Source: Mytilus trossulus (Eukaryota). Taken from it: DNA of 64,000 bases. A model generated the notes under the pieces. It was not told the origin of the DNA and made no database searches. It worked only from the letters and a program-made list of their open reading frames with translations. A program made the position numbers and the translations under genes. The stretch is taken from the NCBI RefSeq assembly GCF_036588685.1, contig NC_086374.1, forward strand, positions 17,732,001 through 17,796,000, written 5' to 3'. Positions 14,564 through 32,756 of the stretch are shown here, in pieces. How positions within the stretch are numbered: position 1 is the stretch's first letter; every line of letters starts with the position of its first letter.

Positions 14564-15274
14564 CTAATAAGGTCTGTCTAGTGAACCTTTTAAGTTTATG
14601 AAGGGAGCAATCGGTGCCAATGCTTTAGTGACTTGATGGCTTTTTGCTTTTCCAGTTATACACCAAGTAACAAAATGTTCACAATTACTAGTGAGAATAT
14701 TATAAATAACACGCATTTCCTTCTGTAGTTTCAACAGCTTGTATGCACGATTTACCGTCTCACTTCTGTCTAATCGTCCATACCTATAACGGATCAATAT
14801 GATTTGGTCAAATTCGAAAGGCAGAATTTCCTCCTTAATTTCTGCCGGAAAGCCTGACGTTTTCTCACCAGTGAAGTGTACTACTTTATACGTCTGATTT
14901 TCTGGATACACATCTACAACTACGGCATGATGCGAATATAGCCCTCGTTTGTATTTGACATGGTCGCCCTTGTTTAGCTGGTGTATATTGTAGACTCGTT
15001 GATTGCTTGTTTTAAAGAAATGGTATGCGCCAATCAGTACTCCAGCCTGAAAAGTAGAATGAAATATTCAATCCAATACAATATATTTCACATATTATCG
15101 GCATTATGTGTTATGTTAGCAGCTGGGAATAGTATATCTAATATATATGTTCCTGGTTAGCAGCTATAAAAACATTTTAAAAAAATGGAAAATTTTATGC
15201 ATCGGTTCTACATATACAACAAAATATATTTGATGAAGAAAATAAAAACATACCCCTGTCACAACTGCTGCCAT
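14564..15274 (-). CDS. LRAT/PLAAT (permuted NlpC/P60) family protein, complement(join(14564..15046,15254..15274)), ~167 aa
   Basis: GDHV..YSHHAVV (H-box), VVHF and NCEHFVTWC (NC-box). Exon 1 MAAVVTG ends at GTATGT; acceptor TTTTCAG at 15047, phase 0; hydrophobic N-terminus. Confidence 0.85.
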
Positions 15275-18200
15275 TATCGACAGTATAAAACCTGCTAACT
15301 TTCTCTGGCATAAGGCCTATTTCTTTGGTAAATGCATGTCAGTATGATGTATACTCACGGGTAGTAACCTCGTCATATCGAGGAGCGTTTAGTACAGCCC
15401 CAGCAGGCACTCAACGTTGATTCAACGTTGAAACAAGGTTGTTTCTCAACGTTGAAACAATGTCAAATTTATGTTTGATTTTGAAAATTGGAATTAACGT
15501 TGTCATTTCAACGTTGAAGTTTCAACATCCATTCAACGTTGATTCAAGGTTGAATAGTAGTTGAAAGTATAATAATGAAATTTATAATAAAGCTACAAAC
15601 ACCACATTTTTTACCTGCTTTCCAAATGTTTGCTGTTGTTTGATGGTAAACAGGCAGTACGGGTGTACATGGTTTTTTTAATGTTTTTCCGTCTCACCAA
15701 TACACATATGAACAAAATAGATAAGTTAAATGAAAGACCTCTAAATAAATACATCAACTGTTACTTTAAACAACATTTGTTGCTTGTACAAAGTCAAAAA
15801 TCTAGACCATAAATGTCATATCTTAAAATCCTGTTGGCAGAAGGAATAGCTGAAATGATTGTGTGTGTCCAATTGTATTTAACGATAACTATAGACATAA
15901 TTATCTATTTAATTTATAAGTGAACAACTATCATTTTTGATATATTCTTACTTGTAGTTTTTCTTGTTGTGAATAGCTATAAAAAGACAAATCATTCAAT
16001 AAATTTGCACAGTTTGCATAAAAACTAAGACATGCACTTTATTCCCTGACACCACAGAAAGGAAAGAAGATGTTGAACAATTCTCACAAGTTCAAAGTAG
16101 TTTTTATTAAACGACCAACCAATGTTATTAAACTCTTCTTGAAAGTAGTATATATATCTAGGAAGAGTGAAGACATTATTAGATCCAATGTGTGTTCAGG
16201 ATGATCGCAATATTTACGAAAATAAGAAGATGCTGCATGACTGCTAACCAGACAACTACATGTATCCACAAAAAACAAAGGTCCTTGATTATATATACAT
16301 ATATGCTATATAAATTACCCTCCAATAAACCATTACATTAATACTTATTTACTCAGGAACAATAATATCAAAAATAGTAATACAATGATATTTCTTTTGA
16401 TACAAGATTTATTCTATAAATTCATTTGTTATATTTGTCTCTTTTTGTCCTAATTGCATGCCATCATTCTTCTACCACCTCGGGATCTTTCAGGGGTAGA
16501 TTTTAAGCAGGAGAGGTCTTTATCAGATATGTATTTCCAAGTGACATCTTTTTACTCTTGCAGTATATTTAAACTCTGGAAAAAATCAGATTATATATAT
16601 ATAATAAATATAAATTGTATGTCCTGAAAAGATATTTTAAATTTGAACCACTTTCAATTTGTTTCTAGAAGCATTGAAAATAAATAAAACCATACTGACG
16701 AGGCACATATTGTAATAAAATAATCATTAATAAAAATATATACATTAATGTTTACTATTAGCAGTTTTTTGTTAATGAAGAAGCTTCAACCTGAGTTTTG
16801 TAAGACTGCTGGTTTCACTGGTATGTTATTGATAACAATGAAAACACTTTACCTAAGTAAGACGTTTTTTTTTTTATTGATGACTGCACAATTCCATTAA
16901 CATAAAATAAAGGGCTTTACTAGAATAGCTTAGATATAAAGACAAACATAATATGGTATGTAAGGTAAACAAAATTAAAATAAACAAAAGAATAATCTTT
17001 GAACACAAATGGTATATAGCTATACAGACAAAAAACCTACCTTTCATGATTTTAAAGACTGAAATTCCCAAAACTGAATTCTAACTTTGCTCCACTTGAT
17101 GCCTTTTAGCCATTGATCTGTTTGACAAGCTTCTGTAAAATAAATAATACATGTTCATGATATCAGATAATGGACTACTATAACATTCAAAACCAGGTTA
17201 CATACACATTTATGTAAACATGCATTTCTCATATTACACAGTGTTAGAGATCACCTGAAGATCAGTAAAGGCTCAGACTGACTTGTTTTTGTGAAAATAA
17301 AACAATAAAAATATCAATTTTCCATGATTGTCCAGTTGAAATTCATTGTTTAATATGATCGTCAAAAAGTATGTGGTTTACCAAGCCTTCAAGTTAAATT
17401 AAAAGAATCGCATATATATAGTATAAAGTAAACATGTTGGGAAATTTACCTGAGCAAAATAATGTAAACACTTGCTTATCCCCCCTTTTTCTTTTATGAA
17501 TCTTTAAGCATAATAATTGTTACAATCTTTGCCTAAACTTTAAAATGAAACGAAAGATGCTTTCCACATTAAATGCTCTAAGAAATAGTATAGTTGGAGG
17601 AAATTATATATGATGGCCCTTCCATGTGTTCTGATCTGTTTTCAATGTTGACGTTATTATTTTCTCTAATTGTGCAATATGATACCAATATTCAGAGTTT
17701 CTAAACACAATTCATAAATATAACAAACCGTGATAGCCACATGCAAACATCTACATACCATAAATATACGTGATAAACGGGAAGTTTCTCTTTCGACTTC
17801 GTCCTTTGTTATTCTTTTTCAAATACAGGAAAGGTGCGTGTTTGAATAATGCGCATGGCCAATCTAACTTCCTGTTCAAATCCCGCGAAAATATGAATGA
17901 AAGAAATCGCGATCATTGTTGATAATCAACTATTTTAAATTTCTTTACATGTTATCTTTATGTTCAAATTAAAGTTATGTGAAATGAAATAAATAAATTA
18001 TATTTCTTATTCCCTAGAAATTTAGATTAAACGACTTACCCCCCCCCCCCTTTTTTCTCATACCGTCACGGTGACTCAAGTTGAAATAGTGACCAATAGT
18101 TAGTACTATACTGTTTTGTGAAACCCAAAACTCTTTTTCATTCTTTTCTTTATAAATATATACTTCTACAGTTATGCATATATTGCCTTCTGATAATGAT

Positions 18201-18599
18201 TTTTTTTATATAGGCTACTATATGAGTAAATACGTTAACGTTGATTCAATGTTGAACCAACGTTCCAATTACAACGTTGAAATGGTCAACGTTAATTCAC
18301 CTATCGCCGCCCCGCCCATAATAATTTATCGACCAATGAAATCGCAGATGCGCTCACGTATTTTTGTTGCTACAACAAGACTCAGACAAACAATGACGTC
18401 TGCCTGAAATTGTCTGAGTGTACAGTTTGGTCAATTATGGTAAAGCGCTGTTGTTACGGTGTTTGTAACACCGACAGTCGGTACGAGGATCGACTTCAGG
18501 ACGGTGTACGTTTTTTGCCATTTCCGAAGAAGTCAAACAACTTAGAAAAGTGTCTGAAATGGATAAAGGCCTGCGGAAGACCGCACTCACAGTTCAATG

Positions 18600-18718
18600 T
18601 AGTCCAAATAATTATGACGTCTTGAAAGGCTATTATATTTTTTTTCCTTGACGCCTTAGTCAGGCGTCATAGAAAAAAATTATAATAGCCTTTCAAGACG
18701 TCATAATTATTTGGACTA
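18600..18718. mobile_element. 119-bp palindromic MITE with 9-bp TSD (Academ- or MULE-like)
   Basis: TAGTCCAAATAATTATGACGTCTTGAAAGGCTATTATA inverted at both ends; TSD AGTTCAATG at 18591-18599 and 18719-18727. Confidence 0.92.
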
Positions 18719-21700
18719 AGTTCAATGTTGAACGGATAACGAGAGCAACTTACATTTGTTCAAAGGTATACTGAAACAAATCAAATACTTTAAATTGAAA
18801 GGATTCAACAGTATTCTTGTTTTAAATATAACCATTGATCAAAAATTGATGTCTTAGACCCCAAAACACAGCCTGTGACAGTCCATACCCCCCCCTTTTT
18901 TTGGTGTGCCTAAAGTCATAACATAAGTCATGCACAAACACGACCGACACATTAACTTTACACGAATATACATAAAAATAAATAAATTGTCAAGAGAATG
19001 GTTTCAAATATGTAAATGTAAGCATTTATTATACAGTAACAAAGTCCTTCCAACTGTCCAATGTATTTTCCAACCATGTTTAAGTTATCATCTTTGTATC
19101 TTCCTCCACTGTTTGGAAAACTTTTGTGTACACTACACATATTTAATTATGCCTTGCATACACAAGAGAGGGTAAGTCAATTAACAAAAGGAATTACTTG
19201 ATTCATGAATTTTTGAAAGCTATCTCTTTGCATAGAAGTATGTTCCTTTAGGATAAGGGGAACTGCCCTCACTTCTAGGTATACTTTCTTTCTTTTGCCC
19301 AAACTTTTGGTCTTTGTCTCGTAATATATTGAAAACCCTTTTTCTAGGAGCCGTGCTGGCGAAATTTTTCAGATATTTGGACTTAGTTTTTTTTTCTGGT
19401 GGGACAATTGGATTATTTAAGCTGGAAAGAAGTGTTCTTCGTCCTGGGGGTAGAATATTATGCATATATTTCCTGTGTTTGAGGGAGATATAAAGATTTG
19501 TTAACCCAAAAAAAATCATATTTCACGAGGGCATATGACTTTTCGAGGGTGAACTTATCTTCATATCTCCAACAGTCGAGGGAAATGAATGTTTTATTTG
19601 ACTGCCATTACTTTTTTTACTTCTGAACTTTAGATATTATATATGCACAGTTGTTTTCTTATCTGTTTTGCTTTAAAACCACATACACAATGATAATCAG
19701 TACTTAAAAGTGCACTATTTATTTACTCTTTTCTATTTGTTTTTTTTTTTAAACAAAATTACTATGTTATCTTTAAAACAAACACGATCAAAATATATTT
19801 CTATTATTGAAACATTTGCCATGGCAAACATCGCACAAGGCAATCCCAACGTTCAGTGCAGTAATAATTAGGCCATAGAAATGAAAGATATTTGTGAAAT
19901 ACACATTGTGATGAACAACTAATTGTCTAATTGGCACTTGAAGCAGTTTGACCCAAGGTTCCATGTTGAAGGTTTTACTATTACCTATAACTGTTTATGT
20001 TATATACTTTTGGTCCTTGATGGAGATTTTTCATTGATAATGAAAGAAAAATGTGTAAAAAGTCTGAACTGCATTTATGATCTGATAGAGTTCATTACAA
20101 GTTTAAATCATTAACGATTAAAAAATGTCTCATACATGTATTTTTGTATAAGTCTTTTTTTATACTGACTCATCCTACTGAATTGACAACAGGTTAATAC
20201 GGTAACTTTGTTATCAGAAAGACATAAAACCCTGTAAAAATTACATGTGTCAGAAAGACCCTCACTAGAACGCACATATTCTAGGTACACACACATTTTA
20301 TGATGTTGATTAATTGATTTAAAACAAATCTAAGCTGCTGTTTTATAATTTAACTGATAATCCTTCCAGTAAATACAGTGTACAATATTTTAGGTTCTCT
20401 ATTTCAGCATTTTGTTAACAAAAATGGGCCAACAGAAGAATATCCCGACCCGATACCATTTGATGGACGAACTCCAAAACCAGCAAGAAAAGTCCTCACC
20501 AAAAGAGTGATTGAAACCCCAAAAGCTGCACCAAACAGACAAGTGAAAAGAAAATTGATCTACAGGTAGATGCAAATTTTATGAAAATATGTCCCTTATA
20601 AATATAATAATTGGTCATAAATATGTAACCCATAAAAACCTTTTTTTTTTTCCCGTCATTCATTTTTATCAATACTGAACTATACAGTGACTTTATCCAT
20701 AAACCAAAATATAAAGCATTACAGGTTATGATTGTTTTTAAAAGGTGACATACATCTGGACTACATGTAACATCCATTTGTTTCCTTGTTTTCTTGCTTA
20801 ACATTTGTCATTTCGGGGCCTTTTACAGCTGATTATGTGGTATGAACTTTGCTTGTTGTTGATGGCTATACAGTGACCTACAGTCGTTAATTTTCTGTGT
20901 CATTTGGTTTCATGTACAGAGTTGTCTCATTGGAAATCAAACAAGATATTCCTATTTTATATCTTAAGTCTGGACAAGTCAATATTTCAAGAAACTATTA
21001 ACAGTAACAACAAACCCTAATTTATTTTAAATTAGAGCAGAAGTAAAAAGCAAATGCAGAAATATATGACACACTAGCTTTGCTTAAGAAATTACTGTAA
21101 ATAAAATAATATACAGGTACCTTTATCAATATTCATTATTTTTTTATGAAATGGCCCTCTCCTATTTCAAAGGTCTTTTACATATATCTTTCTTTTTTAA
21201 TTAGAAATCGCTTAAGATAATTTCACAAATTCGAGTTGTCTCCCTTTGACTAATTGTTTCTTGTTATTTCAGTGAAACATCAGAAATTCAAACAACAGAA
21301 ATAACACCAGATTCCAACAAAGAAAATATGTCACCAGATTTTAACAAAGAAAACACTGTTGCTATACAAACAGAAGGAGGATGTAAGTTGAAATGTGTGC
21401 CTAAGACTGATATTTGTACAGCAGAGGATGAAAATGATTACAAAAACAGTCCTTTTCAGGACTACTAAACTTTCTCAAAAAGATGTTTTCATTTGTTGAT
21501 GGTTCAATTTTTTGGTACACAAATGATAAATGACATAACACAAAGTTTGTGATCAGTACTGTTTATTAATACAGTTGTTAGTATGCAAGGTGATTCAATA
21601 ATATAAAATTGTGAGTTGAAATGGGGTATGCGTCAGAAAGACCACAATCCAACCAAGAAGCAGAAAACAGCATGTACAACAAACAAACACATTTTAATTT

Positions 21701-21841
21701 TGTTAAAAAAATCAATCTTGGTATAAAATAAGTGCTCTTTTATTGTCGACCTTGTATTAAACTTTGAAATAGTAGATTATTTTTTTTTAAAGTTTTCTCT
21801 AAATTTATTTATTGATATATCACTTTCAGAATTGAATTACT

Positions 21842-22572
21842 TTTAAGGTGGAACCTAACACTATTACTAAAATTGATTTGGCTCGTTTAATTTTCACAAA
21901 ATTTTGACAAAGTATTAACTTTGATCATCAATTGACAAAAATATAAAATTTCTAAAAATTTGAACCAACCATTTTACCAGAAATTTACACTGTTTACATA
22001 GCAGTTTGACAGACAGTAATTTTGATCATTGAGAAGCTTAATGTTTCCTTAACAATGCAAGTTAATTAAAACGTTTAGCTGATTTTACAGAGTTTTCTCC
22101 CTGCAGTGTTTGGTATGCTGAAAATTTTGATAAAGTAATAATCGTACAAATTAAAAAGAATGTTCTACATGAAGTCAGCAAGAGGAGGGATTCTTAAAAA
22201 ATGTCCAAGGCTTAAAAATAAGAAGGGGTTCTTTGACAAACCATTTATATGTACTATACATGTATATACCAAAATGACACCAATTTAGGTGTCCACCAAC
22301 ACTTGGACTTAAATTAATTTGGCTCGTTTAATTTTCATAAATTTGTTTACAAAATATTTATTTTGATCCTTTGAAAAAAATATAAAAATTTCAAAAAACT
22401 TGAACCAATCTCTTGAGAAAAAAATTGTAAGAGATATAGTAGTTTGACAAACACTATTTCTGATAATTAAAAAGCTTTATATTTCATTAACAATGCAAGG
22501 TGATTAAAACATCTAGGTGATATCACAGATTTAATCCCCTGAACTTAAATAAGTGTTAGGTACAACTTTAAC
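21842..22572. repeat. Two degenerate copies of a ~260-bp MITE-like repeat (~21842-22115, ~22300-22572)
   Basis: Both share atttggctcgtttaattttca...tgaaccaa...gtttgaca...aagctt...aacaatgcaag; ttaaggtggaacctaacac and gtgttaggtacaacttta form inverted ends. Confidence 0.6.
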
Positions 22573-23115
22573 TTCCAATATAATAATTAAAAATTATGCT
22601 TTTAACATCCTGCAAACAGTTTTTTTTTCCTTGTCAAATTTTCGAACTTCTTGCGTTTCCCCTAGCTAAGACATAGGGTTAAATATTTTGCCCCATCACA
22701 CACTTTTCTTTTTATAGAAATATTTAAATGATCATTTACAAAATATAAGCAAACTGAAGATTTCTTTTCTTACAATTTGTGACCCAAATAATACAAAAGC
22801 CAAATATATAAGGTAAAAGTCTGAAAAATCCTTTCCCTGCCATTTCCTTAACATCAAATATCTTGATAAGGAGTTCTTTGCATTAAACCTATAAAATTTT
22901 CCAATTATATATTTATTCCTAAAGTAATGCTTTTCTGATTCATTTTATCATTTATATAAGTTGTACATTTTTTTTATTTCACCTAAAACATTGTAATATA
23001 TAAATAAGAATGTGATATGAATGCCAATGACACAACTAGTATTCTTATAAATGATTTTTTTTGTCAAACATGAAATGAATTAACCTGCAAGAAACTTCTT
23101 ACACACTGAATAAAA

Positions 23116-26100
23116 TTATAAATGTACATGATCAAAATAAAAGTCTGCAAGCTTATTAAGAATGTTTTGCATTACAGCTTTGTCTGGATAAATTCTTTCA
23201 ATATGGATGTCCTTCTTTGTATAGACTACAAAATCACAAAACTGAGAACCTGTTACAAGTAATTGACCTTGTACCTGAATAAAATAATCATGACTGATTT
23301 TTAATTTCGGTCCATTTTCAGACAACTCTAAACAAAAGTCTGCACCCTGCATTGCGTCAGTGATTAGGTTATCTCTTTGGCTAAATGGACATTTAATTTC
23401 CATAATTCCAGTTACACCATTGTCACATATTTTGGCATCTGGAGTAGCACCAATAAAAGGGTACCTCGGGTTAACTACAAACCCACAATCATGAACATGA
23501 TGGCCAGAAGTTTGAACATATGAGTTTCTAGCTTTTATTTCATTGTTTCTTCCATATGATGTTGCTTTACTAGTGAAAGGCTTTGGCTTCATTATGGAAA
23601 GAATGAACTTGTCATTAATTGCAGCTTTTCTTTTGACAATTCTATGAAAGTTTGATGCTGTTATTCTCTTTTCTCTTTCCTTGAACCACTTTTCACATTG
23701 AGCTTGTTCTCTGGTCTGTTCTTCTATAATGTTTACTTCATCATTTGAAATGGTGTCTATCAAAGTGTTGTATTTTTCTGATAAAACAGATTGACCATTT
23801 TCTTTCGGAAAAACTAAATCTCCACAAACAGTTTCCACTGGAACTATCTCTCTCTGTGAATAAAAGTCTGCCTAAAAAGAAAGGGGATTGTTAAAATTTT
23901 AATATTTAAGGAAATAATTGAAATTATTTTACTGTTTATGGAGAAATAACATAAAAAAATGGTGCACACTGGTTTTTGTCTAGCCTTATGATCATAAGAT
24001 AGTATCCAGAAGTAAATTTAAAAAAAATAAAATTCCATTTTTTTCCGTATTTTACTTATAAATGGACTTAGTTTTTTCCGCAGGGAAACATTACATTCAC
24101 TCTGTGGTTAGAGTTTTTAGAATTTTAATAACATTCTTAAACTATACTTGATTTGTACCAAACTTGGACAGAAGCTTGTTTATGATCATAAAATAGTATC
24201 CAGAAGTAAATTTTGTAAAAAAATAAATCCATTTTTTCTGTATTCTACTCTTAAATGGACTTAGTTTTTCTGCGGGGAAACATTACATTCACTCTGGTTA
24301 AAGTTTTTAAAAAATTAATAACTTTCTTAAACTATCCTTGGTTTGTACCAAAATTGGCCAGAAGCTTATTTATGATCATAAGATAGTATCCAGAAGTAAA
24401 TTTTGTAAAAAGATAACTCCATTTTTTCTGTACTTTAATATTAAATGGACTTAGATTTTCTTACAGTTAACATTACATACAGTCTAGATCTGCAGTTAAA
24501 GTTTTCAAAACATTTATTAGTTTCATTAACTATCCTAGATTTTTACCAAACTTGGACAGAAGCTTCTTACAATCATAAGATAGTATCAAGAGGAATATTT
24601 TCATTGATTTTTTGCCTCATTTTTGTTGAGCCTGAGATTAATAGTAAAAATAGGCGAGACACTGGGTTCTGCGGAACCCTTACAATTTTTTTTATTTTTA
24701 AGTCTGCACCACAATATTTAATGTTATTACTAATTGACAGATAAAATATATCAGTTTTTTCTGATAATTTAATTCTAAATTCTCTTTTATACTGGAGTAA
24801 AACATGAAATAAAGTTGACGACATCAGGCTCACATCAATAAATTTTGTCTATGAACTGATAGACAAAACAACGTCATCAAATCAATTTTTTTCTGATCTG
24901 TTTGAAACTAAAAAAAATCAGATTCCAACTTTTTTTTTTTCTTTAACAAACATATATTTAAAAGTCACAAGAATCTAATGATATTTTTTATATTTCAGGG
25001 GCTGACCCAATTGATATTCTGTCTCTAACAGTGCAAAAGGAGATTTTGGAGAGAGACCTTGCAAGAAAAATATTGGATAATGAAAAGCTAACATTGAATA
25101 ATGCATCCAGGAAATCCCAGAAAATATTTCAAGTTCAACAGAGGGAAAGGTCAATTTTTTCAGCTGAAAACTTTACTAAAGATGACAAAATGTTGAGATA
25201 CTACAGTGGCTTTAACAATACTGAATTTAATGCAGTTTTTAAGTTTTTAGTGCCAGATTCATCAAATTATCCCTTAAAAATGTCAAAGAATATGAAGATA
25301 AAGATAAAAATCAAGGACCAGTTTTTTTTTACATTATGTAAATTGAGAAATAATTTGGACTTTACAGATTTGGGATACAGATTTCAAATATCTACACAAG
25401 ACTGTAGTTCACTTTTTTGTGACTGGATAAATTTCATGTACTTAAGGTTTGGAGCAGTATGTACTTGGCCGCCACGTGACATGATTATTAAAAATATGCC
25501 TGAAAATTATAAAAGGGATTTTCCTAATACTTTGGCAATAATTGATGGTACAGAAATCAAAATACAGAAGCCTTCTTCTCTGCATGCACAGTCACAGTCA
25601 TATTCAAATTACAAGTCTACAAACACTTTAAAAGCTTTGGTAGCAGTTGATCCTAGAGGGTCACTTTTATTTACTTCATGTTTATTTTCTGGTGCTATAT
25701 CAGACAAAGATATATTTGAACAATCGGGATTAAAGAAGATGTTACAAAACTTAGTACAGCATGGTCATATCAAGGAAGGTGATGGTATTATGGCAGACAA
25801 GGGTTTTAATATTCATAAAGAAGTTGAAGATTGCAAACTGAAGTTAAACATCCCACCTTTTGCTAATGCTGGATTACAAATGACTCAAGCAGATGCACTT
25901 TTAACAAAGAAGATTGCTGCACATCGCGTACATGTTGAGCGTACTATAGGTTCTGTGAAGAAGTTTAAAATAGTTGGACAAAAAGTACCTTTATCTTTGT
26001 TTGGACGTGTTAACCAGATTTGGAATGTATGTTGTTTTTTAACAACTTTTCAAAAACCAATTATTCGTCGAAAATAATTACATGTATTTAAGTACAATGA

Positions 26101-29100
26101 ACATGTGTCTGTTTTTTGTTCATATTTTCAATTAAGGGCATACAATACAGTTTTGGTCCTATATTTACAAGTTGATGAAAATATGCATCTAGGCTATTGT
26201 TTACCTGATCATAAAATCAAATATGTTATAAAAAATATACCTTCATGTGGTACTTTTTGAGTAAAATGAGGTAGAAATATTGTATACTCAAAATACAGAA
26301 TTCTAGCCGTATTTTCTTTTTCAAAAGAAAGACAAAACTTTAACATTTTTGTTTTATAAGATAAACCCAAATTGTTTTTTGTTAAATTATCGATAATTTC
26401 TGTATTTATAAGTATCCTAAAAAATTATGCAATTTTTATTCAGAAATAACTCATATTTATCAAATGTTAATGAATTGAGAAAGAAAAACACCATTTTTTG
26501 CTGTATGTTTGTCAAAATTAAAAAAAATCCACTATTTACAGTTTTATAAATCCTTGCAAAATGGAACAAATCGCCGTTTTAAAAAAAAGGGGTCCATGAA
26601 CTTGTTTTTAAGATAAATCAGTTTGAATGATAAAAATCAGTTTTTCCAGACAAGTCATAGTTTGACGTCGCAAAAATAACAATTTACATTAAAAACCTTA
26701 TTACCTCCCCTGTAACTGTATCGTATGCCCTTATCTTAGAATTTAGCTAATTCATTTACTTTAAATTCAGAACATAAGGATTTCATATTCAGGATCAGGA
26801 CCCCTCCTGTCCTCCCTCATTAGCATATTGCATTAAACATTTAAGTATAGTATGCACTAGTTCAACCAATAACTTGAAACAAAAGACATGTACAGCTTAC
26901 AAGTATTTAATACTCAGTCACAGTGGCGGATCCAGAGGGGGGTTTCTGGGGTCAGTTAGATTCAGCATATCAAAGAACCCCAGAACTTAATTTTTGTTGA
27001 AGATTAGTTTTCGACCCTAATTTGGACCAACTTGAAAACTTGATAACAATGGTTCATAATTAAAAATCTAAATACATGTTTTGATGCAGCATTTCAAATA
27101 ACTACCAAACATTTTATTTGTGTTAAAATCAAACCAAGTTTAGTTTTCCACCCTTTGGACCTTAATGTAAACCAATATGAAAATTGGACCCAAAATTATA
27201 AATCTGAATACACAGTTGGATTCAGCTTATAAAAGAACCCCAAGAATTCTATTTTTTTTTAAAATCACACCAAGTTTAGTTTTGGGCCCTTTGGACCTTA
27301 ATGTAAACCAATATGGAAATTGGACCCAAAATTAGAAATCTAAATACACAGTTAGATTTAGCATACAAAAGAACCCCAAGTATTCAATTTTTGAAGAAAT
27401 CAAACTAAGTTTAATTTTGGACCCTTTGGACCTTAATGTAGGCCAATTTGATAACAGTACCTAAATTAAACTTTTAGATACACAGTTAGATTCAGTATAA
27501 TAAAAAATACCTGGAATTCAATTTTTTTTTAAGTTTAATTTTGGACCCTTTGGGCCGTAATGTAGACCAATTCATCAATATGGTACTTATATTTAACCTT
27601 TAGGTACACAGTCAGACTCAGCATATTAAAGAACCCAAATAATAAAATTCTTAATAAAATCGAACAAGTTTATATACAAATTATTAGAAAAGTATTGTTT
27701 ATAATTTGAATTTAACTTACTTGAGTACTTAATGCACTTCCAAGTGGAAAGGGTCCATAACTTGTGTCCTGCATGACTGGTGTGTTGTGTGCTAGATAGC
27801 TGATGGGATAACCTTTTAAGCTGTTCAGATATGAAATGTCTGATTCTTTTACTTGGATCTTCCTGCAATCATAGACATTATTTTATAAATATTACTTATT
27901 GTACTTCGAACAAATAATTAAAGACATTGTTAATTAGACTTACATGTACATTTAGGAGCACATCTATGGCATTTAGAGGAGCAGTATTAAACCTACTAAA
28001 TAATAATATGATTAGACTTAAGAGAAGGTAATCAAGTTACACTGTATTTTTTTTGTTGAAAATGCAACATATATATATATATATGACCTGAAAGACAATG
28101 ATATCACATACTGTACAGTGCCATTACAGCTTTTCTATAAAAGCCTGCAAAGCAAACCTTTGATTATTTATTAATACCTTATAATTGTAAATTTCTTAAT
28201 ACACAGAAACAATATGCAGAACAAGGTAAATAAGCTATGTGCAGTATGAGAAGAACTGCATCATCGTTATGTTAAAATGTATTTACAATGCTTAGTCTTT
28301 TTGATACTTATGTTAGTAGCATATTAATGTATGGGTGTGAAATATGGGGAGTACACAAATCTCCTATGATAGAAAAGGTCCATTTGGACTTCTGCAAAAT
28401 GATATTGGGTGTCAAAAGAAAGACCTAAAACGTGATGGTTTATTTTGAATTAGGTAGATTTCCACTGCAGTATGAGCGTGACTATAGAATACTTAAATTT
28501 TGGTTCAAAATTTTGAATGGTGACAATTGTATATTATTTAGGTCTTGTTATAAAAAAGTTGTGTGAAATTGTTCAAAATGTTTGAATTGGGCAACATATG
28601 TAAAAAGATTGATATTTAGTCTTGTTATGAATAATTTGTGGAATAATCAGTGGTTTAGGAGTAATAGAGGATGAATTTCATTTTATTCTTCAATGTAGTA
28701 GATATACTGACTGGCGAAAAAAATATACGAAAAGTATTCCTGGTCTAGGCAATCAACTTTTAAATTAATAGTTTCGACTTGATCTGAGTTTTTTGATAAT
28801 GATTTGATTTTTGGTGTTTTCACACCACTTTTAAGCACCACATTTAGGCTATTTCATGGCGGCAAATTTTATTGTTGGAGGAAGCCGGAGTGACCAGAGA
28901 AAAGCACAAACCTTCAAAGTTCAATAGGAATACTGACAATCATAGTCAATTTGATTTGAGTCATGTGCACCGGTATGAGCGGGTTTCAAACTCACAACCT
29001 CAGTGTTGACTGGCTAGTGATTACAGGAGTTACTATTTAAACAACTCAGCCACTGATGCCCCTTTTGTGATAATGAGCATTGTGTATAAGTTGTACATAA

Positions 29101-31420
29101 TATTTGGTTGATGCTAACTTAAGTAAGAGAAAGGAAACGATAAAAGAGGGTGGACAAAGGTACACTTAGTTCGCCCTTTGCATAGTGGGTAGTCATTAAA
29201 ACAATATGTAAACTTCACACTACATGTACATTTCTTATTACTTTGCTCTTACCTATTGTCAATCAATGAATTTTTCAATGGCTTTCTTTTTCTGTCCATC
29301 TTTGGTTTGACAATAATCATGCTTGGAGCAGGAACAGCTTTAATCTCTTTCCCACGTGGCTTTCCCCATTGCTGTGGTAAACTAGTGCAGCATAATTCTG
29401 CAGGTGGCTCTGTAAGACCCATCATTTGCCATTGAACTAATCCTTGTATTAAGCCCACAATATGGGAACAGCATCCACTCAGACTGTAATAAAATACAGA
29501 AACATGAAATGTGTTATTTTCATGCCAAATATATAAATACATGTACAAGTATAACATGTACAAGGGGCAAGGTTGACAAAAAATAGGTCAATACTAGTAT
29601 TTACCATGCCAGTGGTAAATACCAGGAAATATTGGTGAGTACTGGTTGCAGATTTAAATTTTTTGTGGTCGATTCTATAAAAACCACTCTCTACTTAGTC
29701 AATAATTGTCAATGTCAGTAATAAAATAATGAAAGTGTTCAAGTCATTTAATGCATTTATTTTAAATTCATAATTATAAACATTGATTTAAATTGATACA
29801 TTAGTACATAATACTAAAGTAAAAGATAGTAACTGTTTCGTCCCTGCCAAGGGTACTCATCAGGTGGCTTTTTAAAGGCTACCACTACAGTTTTCTTTTC
29901 CTTTATTTTTTTTCTCTTTTATTCTTTTTTTCTTATTATATTCTCTTTTTTCTGATTCAAATATTTGTATACCAATATATTATGTATATTTAAGGGGATA
30001 TATATATACATGTATACATACATTTGTATAACATAATTAAGGGATGATCTTGGTTAAGCATGAAATTTGATTGTTTACCTTTACAAGGGTATAAGGGTCC
30101 ACATGCATGTACCCTCAACAGTCCCCACCCCCAAACAAAAAATAAAGGTTCCAAAATTTGAAATCTGGGCACCAAAACATAATTTATCTAATAAATTTTT
30201 ATAAATCTGTTCGAACCTTTCCAAAGGGGATCAAAAGATACATGTACATAACTGTTACAGGAAGTATATCATGTACATGTATATTGAGCCTACATTTTTT
30301 TTGTACATCATTATAATATATGGTATACATGTGAAGATCTTGAACAAAATATATACATATTATATTTCTTAGTGCATATTCTCGTCTGTGTATTTCCTAT
30401 TACTCTCCCTAGTTTGTAAGCTCAAAAATAGCCTACATTGTACACGTACCTACCCTAAAGTTTATTTTTTTATTTTTCAAGAGGCATTTCACACTGTTCA
30501 AGTCAAAATGTCTCTCCAATAAACACGATGGACTCAATGTTAAACGAAAAAAGATGGGGGGGGGGGGGGGGGGGGGGGGTAATCCTTCCCTGCCCTATAT
30601 TTTCCAAAGAAGTAACAGGAAACATGCATATACACATGTAACTTGGTTTTGGCCTCTCAGGATAAATTAATACAGAAAAGGGGAGCTTTATACTAATTAA
30701 AAAGATATATATATATAGCCACACACCCAACACTACCCCTAAAAAATAAATGGTATTTCCCTTACAATAGACAAAACCATTGCCATGCATACATATATAT
30801 GCAATGTTTTTGTATGGCACTGTATAAAAATCACAAAGAAGTGGGACAGTTCCCCTTATCCTAAAGGAACATACTTCTTTTGTGGAAAAAAGAGACTTGA
30901 CAGAATATTTTTGTAATGTCAGATATACAACTAACAACGGAACCGCTGTACCCTTGCTGTCAATCCAGGGGTGCGTCTATATTGGCGAAATCTCAAAGTA
31001 CATAGTTACAGACATAGCCATGTAGTAAAAAAAGGGGGGCGTTACGTTTTATGGTTGAGAGGATTACATGGATTATGATTACAACTGAATCGACATGCAG
31101 ATAAAATTAATGATTGAAAAATAAACGTACCCTGCAGTGCATGAACAGTTGGAAAGTTCTATCTGTCCTCCATTAACATCGATCTCAACACTGTGTGGTA
31201 TCTCGTTCTTTCGTTGACTTCTATGACATTTTGCGGAGATGTTTACTGTCTGCTCAACGACTTGTTTCAACATTTTCACATTATGAATATATCCCTCGCT
31301 GAAATATTTGAAACCAGTCTGCTTGCATTTCAAAGAAATTTCACAATTAAGATACCCCAACTGGAAATTGTTTGGCAGATCAGACAAACTTGCCGCACGA
31401 TAAGGCTTGGCGGTCGCCAT
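23116..31420 (-). CDS. SWIM zinc finger + YqaJ/lambda-exonuclease accessory protein, complement(join(23116..23871,27721..27862,29253..29483,31131..31420)), ~472 aa
   Basis: CSCTAG|LSGCCSH SWIM motif crosses intron 1; CTSLPQQW, GPFPLGSALSTQ; YqaJ motifs RITASNF, YG..NE, GATPD, EIKCP, YFIQVQGQ. Phases 2,2,0 are consistent and the frame is open. Confidence 0.88.
23985..24682 (+). mobile_element. Helentron/HINE-like remnant with ~190-bp internal tandem repeats
   Basis: tatgatcataagatagtatccagaagtaaattt recurs at ~23987, 24181, 24370, 24572; ends with ggcgagacact plus the hairpin gggttctgcggaaccc. Confidence 0.6.
26135..26731. mobile_element. MITE in TTAA-like context (Kolobok/piggyBac-like)
   Basis: AGGGCATACAATACAGTT / AACTGTATCGTATGCCCT inverted termini. 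Confidence 0.7.
26950..27670. repeat. Degenerate ~122-bp tandem array, about 6 units
   Basis: cagttagattcagcatat..aagaacccc..ccctttggaccttaatgta recurs at ~122-bp spacing. Confidence 0.75.
28190..28660 (+). pseudogene. Decayed C-terminal LINE (CR1/L2-like) ORF2 fragment
   Basis: Translates to YGCEIWG..IEKVHLDFCKMILGVKRKT*NVMVYFELGRFPL with stops. Confidence 0.7.
28801..29063 (-). mobile_element. tRNA-derived SINE
   Basis: Minus strand GGGGCATCAGTGGCTGAGTTG (A box) ... GTGAGTTTGAAACCCG (B box), central ctccggcttcctcc..ccgccatgaaatagc, (AAATC)n-like tail. Confidence 0.7.
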
Positions 31421-32756
31421 CTTTTTCGCTTTGTTTGTCTGAGTCTCCGTGACAATAGCTAATTAGCATAAATGGGCGGAGCATAACCCAATATGGGCGA
31501 TAGGTGAATTCAACGTTGAATGTTGGTTTATTCCTTAACGTTGAAAATGTTACGTTGTTTCAACGTTGAATATACGTTGATCACATTTCAACCTCATTTC
31601 AACGTTTATTAAACGTTGAGTGCCTGCTGGGGCGATTATGTCATAGTTTGGATAAGTTTGACATGACGGTGTATAGTGTTGTTTATGACAATCAATGCCA
31701 AAATGTAAACATTGGGATATTTGTAAAAAGAGCTTTTGACCATATTAGATTCAAGCTGGTAAGTATTTTTGTATATAGTTGAATGATATGTTAGTACATC
31801 AAAAGTTGTATCATATAGTGCCAAATCCTTTAACACAGAACAGCTTACGTATGTCAAAAAGTTGCTGTCTGGTTTCTCGTGCATAAAACATTATTATTCG
31901 CTTTCTGTCTGTCATATCACATATCTCTATATGTGATATAAAACTGACGTCAACTTTTTCGAAAAATACCTACTTTTGCGCACTATTCAAAATTACTCAA
32001 AAAACTGTGTCATGGTTTCGTTCATGATCGATCATGTTCGACATGATTCAGCCGGTTATGGGATTCTAGTCATGTATAATGGAGAATAACGACCAAAATA
32101 AACAAGTCATTTGAAACACAAAAGGACATATGAACGCACATACAATGTATTAAAGTCGATGCAATGAGACAACTATTCGCCCGAGATCAAATGACCTAGA
32201 TGTAAGCAACTATATGTCACCACAAAGCATTCAACAATGGGCAAAACCATACCTTTTAGCAAGTTATTAATTTTAAAAGGCTGCGACAAAATTAAATGTA
32301 GAAGAATTAAAATGAAAAAAGCAACAGCCTGATTTCTGTCCAAACAATACAAAACTAGAAAAAACGTTATCCTGAATATTCAAAATTAAATTTTGCTGTT
32401 TCCAGCAAAGCAAGCCAACAGTTTTGCCAAAATCAATTCTTTAAATTTCAATTCTTTATTTTTTCAATGATATTAACAATGTAGGCCTACCACTCCATAC
32501 ATAATACTAGATCTCAGGAGCTTTTTCAGATATTATCGAAACTTTATTGCATAAAAAGTAAAATATTTGAATAACACACCATGCATTTGGGTGTCGCATC
32601 GCTTGAGAAACGAAACTATATCACGCAATAAATAAATTAATAATACGCGTAAAAAGTGTACAACACAAAATTTAAAAAAAAGAAGGAAAAGGTTTTAAAA
32701 AATTTAAAAAAAAGAAGGAAAAGGTTTTAAAATTTTTTTTAAAAAGAAGGAAAAGC

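Follow-up and report, generated by a model that had tools for sequence, protein, structure and literature searches.

The DNA analysed here is a stretch of 64,000 nucleotides from Mytilus trossulus (NCBI RefSeq assembly GCF_036588685.1, contig NC_086374.1, positions 17,732,001 to 17,796,000 of the forward strand). It is called the window below, and positions are counted from its first letter. The window carries an ISL2EU-type transposon with two convergent genes, a transposase gene on the + strand and a nuclease gene on the - strand, and each gene holds the last, catalytic exon of the other in its own last intron. The transposase gene has four exons and a predicted product of 515 amino acids (aa) composed of THAP, helix-turn-helix (HTH) and DDE domains. 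The nuclease gene also has four exons; its predicted SWIM-YqaJ product is 472 aa long and its frame is intact in the window copy. The last transposase intron (21383-24998) encloses the YqaJ exon at 23116-23871, the last nuclease intron (27720-23872) encloses the DDE exon at 24999-26077, and the coding regions of the two genes overlap by 0 bases. All six introns are of the GT-AG type, and each model has one terminal stop once an insertion in transposase exon 1 and one copy of its 9-bp duplication are removed. An earlier note on this DNA, made from the letters alone, had described both catalytic exons as lying in the partner's last intron and had seen no coding overlap. The exon models and the Pfam matches (PF09588 for the YqaJ exon, PF13359 and PF13613 for the DDE exon) agree with it to the base. 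The note had also taken the two genes for parts of one ISL2EU-type element encoding both proteins, convergent and interleaved, and the domains, splices and homologues described below bear this out. The 119-bp insertion in transposase exon 1 had been overlooked.

When the open reading frames (ORFs) of the eight exons were scanned with Pfam, matches above the cut-off were found in three of them. The family matched by transposase exon 4, PF13359, is DDE_Tnp_4, and the catalytic residues are present. Conserved in this exon are D182, K205, D235, D266, P286, R309 and E313, which are invariant across 53 sequences. Their spacings (22, 29, 30, 19, 22 and 3) fall within the PHIS catalytic pattern D(19-29)K(29)D(18-40)D(11-19)P(18-28)R(3)E, as given in PMC4122938.

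Transcripts support the two gene models. Four of the 24 sequencing runs listed were compared, among them the DNA run X1 and the runs X7, X17 and X19; the contigs carry neither strand nor level, and X7 and X17 are RNA by guess only. One X7 contig of 1,864 letters (record 24) joins 18293-18590 to 24999-26249 via 315 intervening letters, and the rest of exon 1 together with exons 2 and 3 accounts for these 315 letters. Given this match in length, the contig represents a transposase mRNA from which the YqaJ exon has been spliced out. It also extends the transposase 3' untranslated region (UTR) to at least 26249. For the nuclease gene, X7 record 30 covers 31510-31131 and continues with 259 letters, which equal exon 2 plus 28 letters of exon 3. 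X7 and X17 contigs follow the YqaJ exon to 23870 and then carry a 30-letter overhang from elsewhere, while other contigs fork at 27720-27749, matching the 30-letter overhang expected from a splice between nuclease exons 3 and 4. This splice is deduced from the contig forks. The nuclease 3' UTR extends to at least 22378 (X7 record 25, X17 record 11). Junctions in RNA had been proposed as a check in the earlier note, and they are thus provided for the transposase by one contig and for the nuclease by contig forks. From the 3' reach of the RNA contigs of both genes it follows that the primary transcripts overlap antisense over at least 3.9 kb (22378-26249); the earlier note was right about the overlap itself, but its size of ~3 kb was too small. 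Spliced mRNAs of both genes are present in the same two libraries (X7 and X17), so there is no mutual exclusion at the level of the bulk sample. X19 contributed short pieces only, with no junction among them, and pieces of the DNA run X1 run unspliced across exon borders.

Database proteins point in the same direction. A 515-aa protein of M. trossulus is 99.8% identical to the transposase model, gap-free over 515/515 residues, and a 515-aa protein of M. edulis is 99.0% identical, again gap-free. The nuclease model aligns end to end with a Haliotis protein (P0122; 46% identity over 470 aa) and with a Dreissena protein (P0125; 40% identity), and all three exon junctions are spanned in both alignments. 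The coordinates are collected in Table 1.

Table 1. Features of the transposon and of the element around it (positions in the window)
Feature	Position	Strand	Evidence or remark
ISL2EU-type element, most likely extent, 13,211 bp	18297-31507		terminal inverted repeat (TIR) pair, flanks, X1 joint
Left TIR (TCACCTATCGCC), AT before it at 18295-18296	18297-18308	+	perfect 12-bp inverted repeat
Right TIR, AT after it at 31508-31509	31496-31507	-	perfect 12-bp inverted repeat
Transposase exon 1 (THAP, interrupted by insertion)	18437-18765	+	PF05485 E 5.1e-5
Transposase exon 2 (end of THAP, linker)	20408-20565	+	exon model, homologue alignment
Transposase exon 3 (linker; phase-1 donor opens YqaJ-holding intron)	21273-21382	+	X7 arithmetic 315 = 315
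Transposase exon 4 (HTH and DDE)	24999-26077	+	PF13359 E 1e-43, PF13613 (HTH_Tnp_4) E 3.7e-13
Nuclease exon 1 (start codon, first half of SWIM-like zinc finger)	31420-31131	-	X7 record 30
Nuclease exon 2 (second half of SWIM-like zinc finger)	29483-29253	-	X7 record 30 arithmetic 259 = 259
Nuclease exon 3 (linker; phase-0 donor opens DDE-holding intron)	27862-27721	-	contig forks at 27720-27749, 27835
Nuclease exon 4 (YqaJ / lambda-exonuclease-like catalytic domain)	23871-23116	-	PF09588 E 2.7e-19
Hairpin insertion, 119 bp, TAG...CTA ends	18600-18718		9-bp duplication 18591-18599 / 18719-18727
Surrounding element, left part	15399-18296		CCC...GGG ends, GC duplication, AACGTT-rich subterminal repeats
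Surrounding element, right end	31510-31631		same inverted repeat and AACGTT cluster

The earlier note had given the extent as 18437-31420. This covers both coding regions, but the ends of the element lie outside it, most likely at 18297 and 31507. The 12-bp TIR is perfect, has one copy on each side in the window, and is flanked by AAT on the left and ATT on the right. According to PMC4482050, ISL2EU elements duplicate AT at an A|AT|T target and have TIRs of 6-259 bp that usually start with GG; the flanks in the window conform to the target rule. One X1 contig joins 18293 to 31507 as expected of an empty site, and a microhomology deletion would look alike. An X7 contig leaves the window sequence right after 31510, with 77 different letters beyond. 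Inverted similarity between the two sides (18297-18395 against 31420-31507) continues past the TIR; it takes in a GC-box-like stretch and, close to the start codon of each gene, an exact block of 15 nt. A related element, L006, has paired blocks of the same kind. This similarity suggests that the two promoters may be co-regulated.

The order of exons seen in the window recurs in relatives. The best 80 of 160 loci in metagenome contigs, found with a profile from 53 DDE proteins, were mapped for domains: 16 are interleaved, 38 carry the two genes tail to tail and 26 are uninformative (54 informative loci). Among the 16, evidence lies on both sides of the DDE exon in 8, only upstream in 3 and only downstream in 5. 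L006 is a complete interleaved element of 4,720 bp within a single AT-flanked GG...CC terminal pair, which makes the layout a property of single canonical elements. Since the same order is found in 16 of the 54 informative loci, all of them in one clade, the interlock is not chance; nor is it a local accident or universal among relatives. The tail-to-tail relatives (38 loci, e.g. L010, L029, L047 and L048) resemble the window element in having homologous, convergent genes and AT-flanked ends, and differ from it in that nothing is interleaved. As to the terminal letters, the window TIR begins with TC (ends TC...GA), that of L006 with GG, and those of the tail-to-tail loci L047 and L048 with AG. 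At one tail-to-tail locus (L072, 4719-5719) YqaJ pieces lie on both strands, by local inversion or duplication.

In a tree of 97 DDE rows (81 loci and 16 named proteins; quick search), the 17 interleaved rows, that is the 16 loci and the window, form one side of a branch with a Shimodaira-Hasegawa-like approximate likelihood ratio (SH-aLRT) support of 99. Layout changes once on this tree, compared to a mean of 14.7 for shuffled labels, and 0 of 500 shuffles were as low, although the test is inflated by near-copies. The 17 rows fall into 13 clusters at 80% identity, and their DDE identity goes down to 42%; judged by this divergence, the interleaved clade is old. The YqaJ tree was built from 41 of 50 loci with a match, 9 being too short and left out. 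Its split agrees with that of the DDE tree (9 against 32 rows, support 97), and the two subclades recur in it. Tail-to-tail elements occupy several deep lineages of the trees. Bivalve, abalone and four teleost fish proteins fall inside the interleaved clade of the DDE tree. In abalone there are many near-identical full-length nuclease copies of 487 aa (P0122, P0146-P0154), with 475-486 of 487 residues identical in the 12 pairs listed. Judged by these copies, the clade has recently active members. Elements of the clade are also present in the pipefish Syngnathoides (P0008, P0121, P0145), whose transposase groups with the abalone one (support 98), a hint of possible horizontal transfer; for the Syngnathoides nuclease the annotation gives a fusion to syntaxin-binding protein 1b. 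The DDE profile gave 19 pattern matches in viral contigs and 231 in prokaryote genomes, 0 of them confirmed in either set; all that the YqaJ profile matched were distant nucleases of viruses (24-37% identity).

The intron that holds the DDE exon is shared within the clade. A phase-0 GT donor after a G-S/A-x-L-x-x-H/Q/Y motif was located in the window and in 11 of the 13 interleaved loci that hold nuclease exon 3 (as the top choice of the alignment in 4, as its second choice in 2 and by motif search in 5), and was not found at the motif in the other two, L012 and L017. The Haliotis protein P0155 and the Dreissena protein P0159 end just after this motif and P0147 begins there. On the evidence of these breakpoints, the named molluscs share the same phase-0 nuclease intron. 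The interlock accounts for such annotation errors, i.e. truncated models that end or start at the interlock intron. Most tail-to-tail loci are without this intron: SWIM and YqaJ lie in a single ORF in 16 of 20 testable cases. The picture is weaker for the transposase: most interleaved loci offer phase-1 acceptor candidates, though not unique ones, and a single ORF with both THAP and DDE exists in only 12 of the 28 testable non-interleaved loci.

Taken together, we hold with fair confidence that the interleaved layout is common to one clade, that it likely arose once by internal rearrangement, and that it likely persists because it is hard to undo. A tree rooted with six bacterial IS5-like outgroups, containing 13 of the 17 interleaved and 22 of the 38 tail-to-tail rows, keeps the interleaved clade whole (99/99) with the outgroups outside it, and unites the tail-to-tail rows as one group in 2% of bootstrap trees. 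Derivation of the interleaved layout from the tail-to-tail one is favoured by these sequence comparisons. By the simplest route, the inner DDE-YqaJ block could have been duplicated, or a head-to-tail dimer or a self-insertion could have formed. If the first half of DDE and the second half of YqaJ were then lost, THAP-DDE-YqaJ-SWIM would become THAP-YqaJ-DDE-SWIM with both strands unchanged, and new splice sites would arise at the breakpoints. A single inversion is rejected as the origin; it would turn each catalytic exon onto the other strand and join THAP to YqaJ.

Several points weigh against this interpretation. The joint between nuclease exons 3 and 4 is absent as a joint among the matches listed, and its deduction from the forks rests on the length of the overhang (30 letters) rather than on its letters. 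The TIRs of the window start with TC and not with the usual GG. The profile used in the survey was seeded from the interleaved clade itself, and the named molluscs and fishes in this clade are known by protein and not by gene order. The approximately unbiased (AU) test does not reject a root placed between the layouts (p 0.518), and the bacterial outgroups are long branches. No intermediate with a duplicated block was found among the relatives surveyed. Finally, conservation of the layout over such a distance is equally well compatible with selection.

Regarding expression, promoters just inside each TIR would drive two convergent transcripts. Each of them would cross the last exon of the partner in antisense and splice that exon out as part of an intron. 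The transposase would bind the TIRs and insert at A|AT|T sites, and the nuclease would help to process DNA ends. The role of the ISL2EU nuclease is given as unknown in PMC4482050, and PMC9179366 states that no ISL2EU activity had been demonstrated as of 2022. The earlier note had concluded that the interlock forces co-inheritance of the two genes. This is overstated, because the tail-to-tail layout already puts both genes in one TIR pair and because the window copy lost one gene through a small insertion with the other intact. What the interlock would prevent is only the swap of a whole gene by a single crossover.

The layout could also be kept by selection as a means of self-control, through polymerase interference or through double-stranded RNA (dsRNA) or small RNAs from the antisense overlap. 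Transposase and nuclease output would then be coupled or damped, and a failed crossing would give truncated, catalytically dead products. This explanation accepts the same anatomy and differs in why the layout persists; we regard it as possible, though on balance unlikely. Conservation of the layout down to 42% identity is in its favour. In four relatives the two acceptors, standing back to back, are 33, 85, 106 and 137 nt apart, but their spacing is not conserved, being 413 nt in a fifth relative and 1,127 nt in the window. Four relatives have their transposase stop at a distance of 9-26 nt from nuclease exon 3, and 7 of 11 loci have no AWTAAA between the two, so that the 3' UTR would cover exon 3 in antisense. 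However, short gaps are without a signal trivially, two of the 7 loci are near-copies, and a poly(A) signal does precede exon 3 in 4 of the 11 loci and in the window (27499, 27641, 27653), which means that the mature mRNAs do not overlap in every case. The span 26220-28683 is covered piecewise by RNA contigs, as self-control would allow; this cover is patchy, strandless and runs through repeats, and it fits a transposase 3' UTR of great length, retention of a nuclease intron or other repeat copies. The annotations of Haliotis and Dreissena include SWIM-only products that stop at the interlock intron, whereas no THAP-only product ending at the last intron occurs among the cluster members compared. 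Moreover, both spliced mRNAs occur in the same libraries, and tail-to-tail relatives thrive without an interlock. More tentatively still, the interlock may be a built-in switch: the catalytic exon would be reached only if the polymerase crosses the catalytic exon of the partner, and failure would yield THAP-only and SWIM-only products together with antisense RNA that throttles transposition.

The interleaved layout could instead be the ancestral one, or no younger than the tail-to-tail layout, which would then have been produced by untangling and intron loss; we judge this rather improbable. The AU result (p 0.518) would permit such a root, but the root of the tree falls outside the interleaved clade, which is one clade in 99% of bootstrap trees, and the tail-to-tail rows belong to several deep lineages and come together as one group in just 2%. 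Single derivation of the interlock from tail-to-tail elements agrees better with these trees.

The extent of the element has to be weighed against a larger structure around it. A 45-nt inverted repeat, 89% complementary, with CCC...GGG ends and a GC duplication, has its outer limits at 15399 and 31631. The motif TCAACGTT has 20 matches in the window, all of them in clusters at 15411-15542, 18237-18293 and 31510-31619 (chance mean 2.3). It is likely from these repeats that the 13.2-kb ISL2EU element is inserted into a separate non-autonomous element of ~3.0 kb, which, with its palindromic AACGTT subterminal repeats, we take to be animal EnSpm-like. There is no clear ORF in this ~3.0-kb element, and its interior overlaps X7 and X17 RNA contigs. 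Alternatively, the true element would be the whole 16.2-kb CCC...GGG unit (15399-31631), the AACGTT clusters being binding sites and the 18293-31507 joint an internal deletion derivative. The complementary 45-nt arms with their GC duplication fit this, the inner TIR is short and starts with TC, and 6 letters at the joint could come from either side, as is seen in microhomology deletions. Still, the inner repeat stands in the exact AAT...ATT context of the ISL2EU target rule, one RNA contig has 77 foreign letters past 31510 and another begins at 18293, removal of the core merges the two inner AACGTT clusters into one subterminal block, and the relatives L006, L029, L047 and L048 have AT-flanked GG or AG ends. 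We find the 16.2-kb unit improbable and keep to a 13.2-kb element within a smaller one.

That the catalytic exons are parts of different elements that became nested by chance, the alternative named in the earlier note, is hardly credible even though the window has many nested repeats, several of them inside these introns: spliced contigs, gap-free full-length homologues, recurrence of the order in 16 further loci from 12 lineages, L006 within one TIR pair and both gene trees rule it out, and of the 25 longest among 328 inverted-repeat pairs, none encloses either exon.

In all defining features open to a test, apart from the usual GG ends, the element is a member of ISL2EU (PHIS): it has a THAP-HTH-DDE transposase, the PHIS pattern, a YqaJ second gene and an AT duplication in A|AT|T. 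The trees contain search hits and bacterial IS5-like outgroups, and the assignment is by features and not by catalogued families. Published ISL2EU elements are alike in the two genes, the PHIS spacing, the AT duplication and the animal host, and the 12-bp TIR is within the reported 6-259 bp. Compared to them, the last exons of the window element are swapped in order, each lying in the intron of the other; the copy is 13.2 kb long and swollen by intron repeats, as against a mean of ~4.8 kb; and its ends are TC...GA instead of the usual GG...CC. The interlocked clade is a new structural variant of ISL2EU. ISL2EU elements are described as having 'two ORFs', with orientation, introns and overlap unmentioned in the accessible text, and in the main text of PMC4482050 the words 'intron', 'overlap', 'opposite' and 'orientation' occur 0 times. 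No description of the interlocked layout was found in a search of full-text literature, covering the accessible text of PMC4482050, PMC4122938, PMC9179366, PMC12730594, PMC9587614, PMC9710019 and PMC5534336 among others, with Repbase Reports and subscription journals outside its scope. Exon coordinates of ISL2EU/IS4EU entries in Repbase may already hold the layout without comment, which is the main risk to its novelty.

Two genes transcribed inward from promoters at the TIRs are also found in maize MuDR (mudrA/mudrB) and in ProtoRAG (RAG1L/RAG2L). To our knowledge the genes of MuDR and ProtoRAG meet end to end, and neither has a catalytic exon in the intron of the partner; the convergent two-gene layout is alike, the interlock is not. 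Among animal host genes there are nested or interleaved pairs, in which exons of one gene lie inside an intron of a gene on the opposite strand. Unlike in these, the nesting in the window is mutual, joins two genes of a single mobile unit, and has been maintained across an old clade whose elements are compact. The term for such genes appears once in the accessible text of PMC5534336. Identity with other families was rejected. Spy, another PHIS group, has a single ORF without THAP and inserts at AAA|TTT without duplication (PMC4122938), while the window element has two genes, a THAP domain and the flanks AAT and ATT. PIF/Harbinger (Myb/SANT second gene, TWA duplication) does not fit a SWIM-YqaJ second gene and an AT duplication. 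KolobokE, as defined in PMC9587614, does not fit a DDE_Tnp_4 domain with the PHIS pattern and a nuclease encoded by a separate gene on the opposite strand.

The window copy itself is damaged. The hairpin insertion at 18600-18718 introduces in-frame stops into the THAP exon, and by its sequence the copy is therefore unable to make full-length transposase and is dead in cis. The form of exon 1 without the insertion is found in X7, X17 and X1 and in the proteins P0001, P0135 and P0138. Because uninterrupted, transcribed copies exist, the window copy could be mobilised in trans by their transposase. The insertion is a near-perfect hairpin, a miniature transposable element with inverted repeats (MITE) of 119 bp that we assume to be Academ-like. 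Its contig depth in the DNA run X1 is very high, which suggests a high-copy family.

Other features of the region are of less importance for the two genes. A 35-nt inverted pair (19234-19268 / 30844-30878; 97% complementary) lies in the first intron of each gene, probably as two copies of a dispersed repeat. Tandem-like arrays at 23986-24624 and 26953-27658, with units of ~190 bp and 136 bp, lie between the interlocked exons and are high-copy in the runs. A degenerate + strand frame at 28200-28800 inside nuclease intron 2 resembles the 3' end of a reverse transcriptase gene of a long interspersed nuclear element (LINE). Just left of the outer element, at 14860-15050, there is an exon-like frame on the - strand, probably of a host gene and LRAT/NlpC-like by eye. 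Rfam gave 0 matches over 15300-31700.

The interlock divides ISL2EU into two architectures that follow phylogeny, and it can serve as a structural marker for classification. It is also a dated natural case of two genes that are mutually nested and stay so across molluscan and, by the protein tree, fish lineages. Comparison of interleaved and untangled elements could show whether convergent overlap limits a transposon. If the layout is neutral, it is a curiosity of transposon evolution. If the interlock does act as a switch, eukaryotic DNA transposons would have a principle of control that has not been described for them, and there would be a handle on the role of the ISL2EU nuclease.

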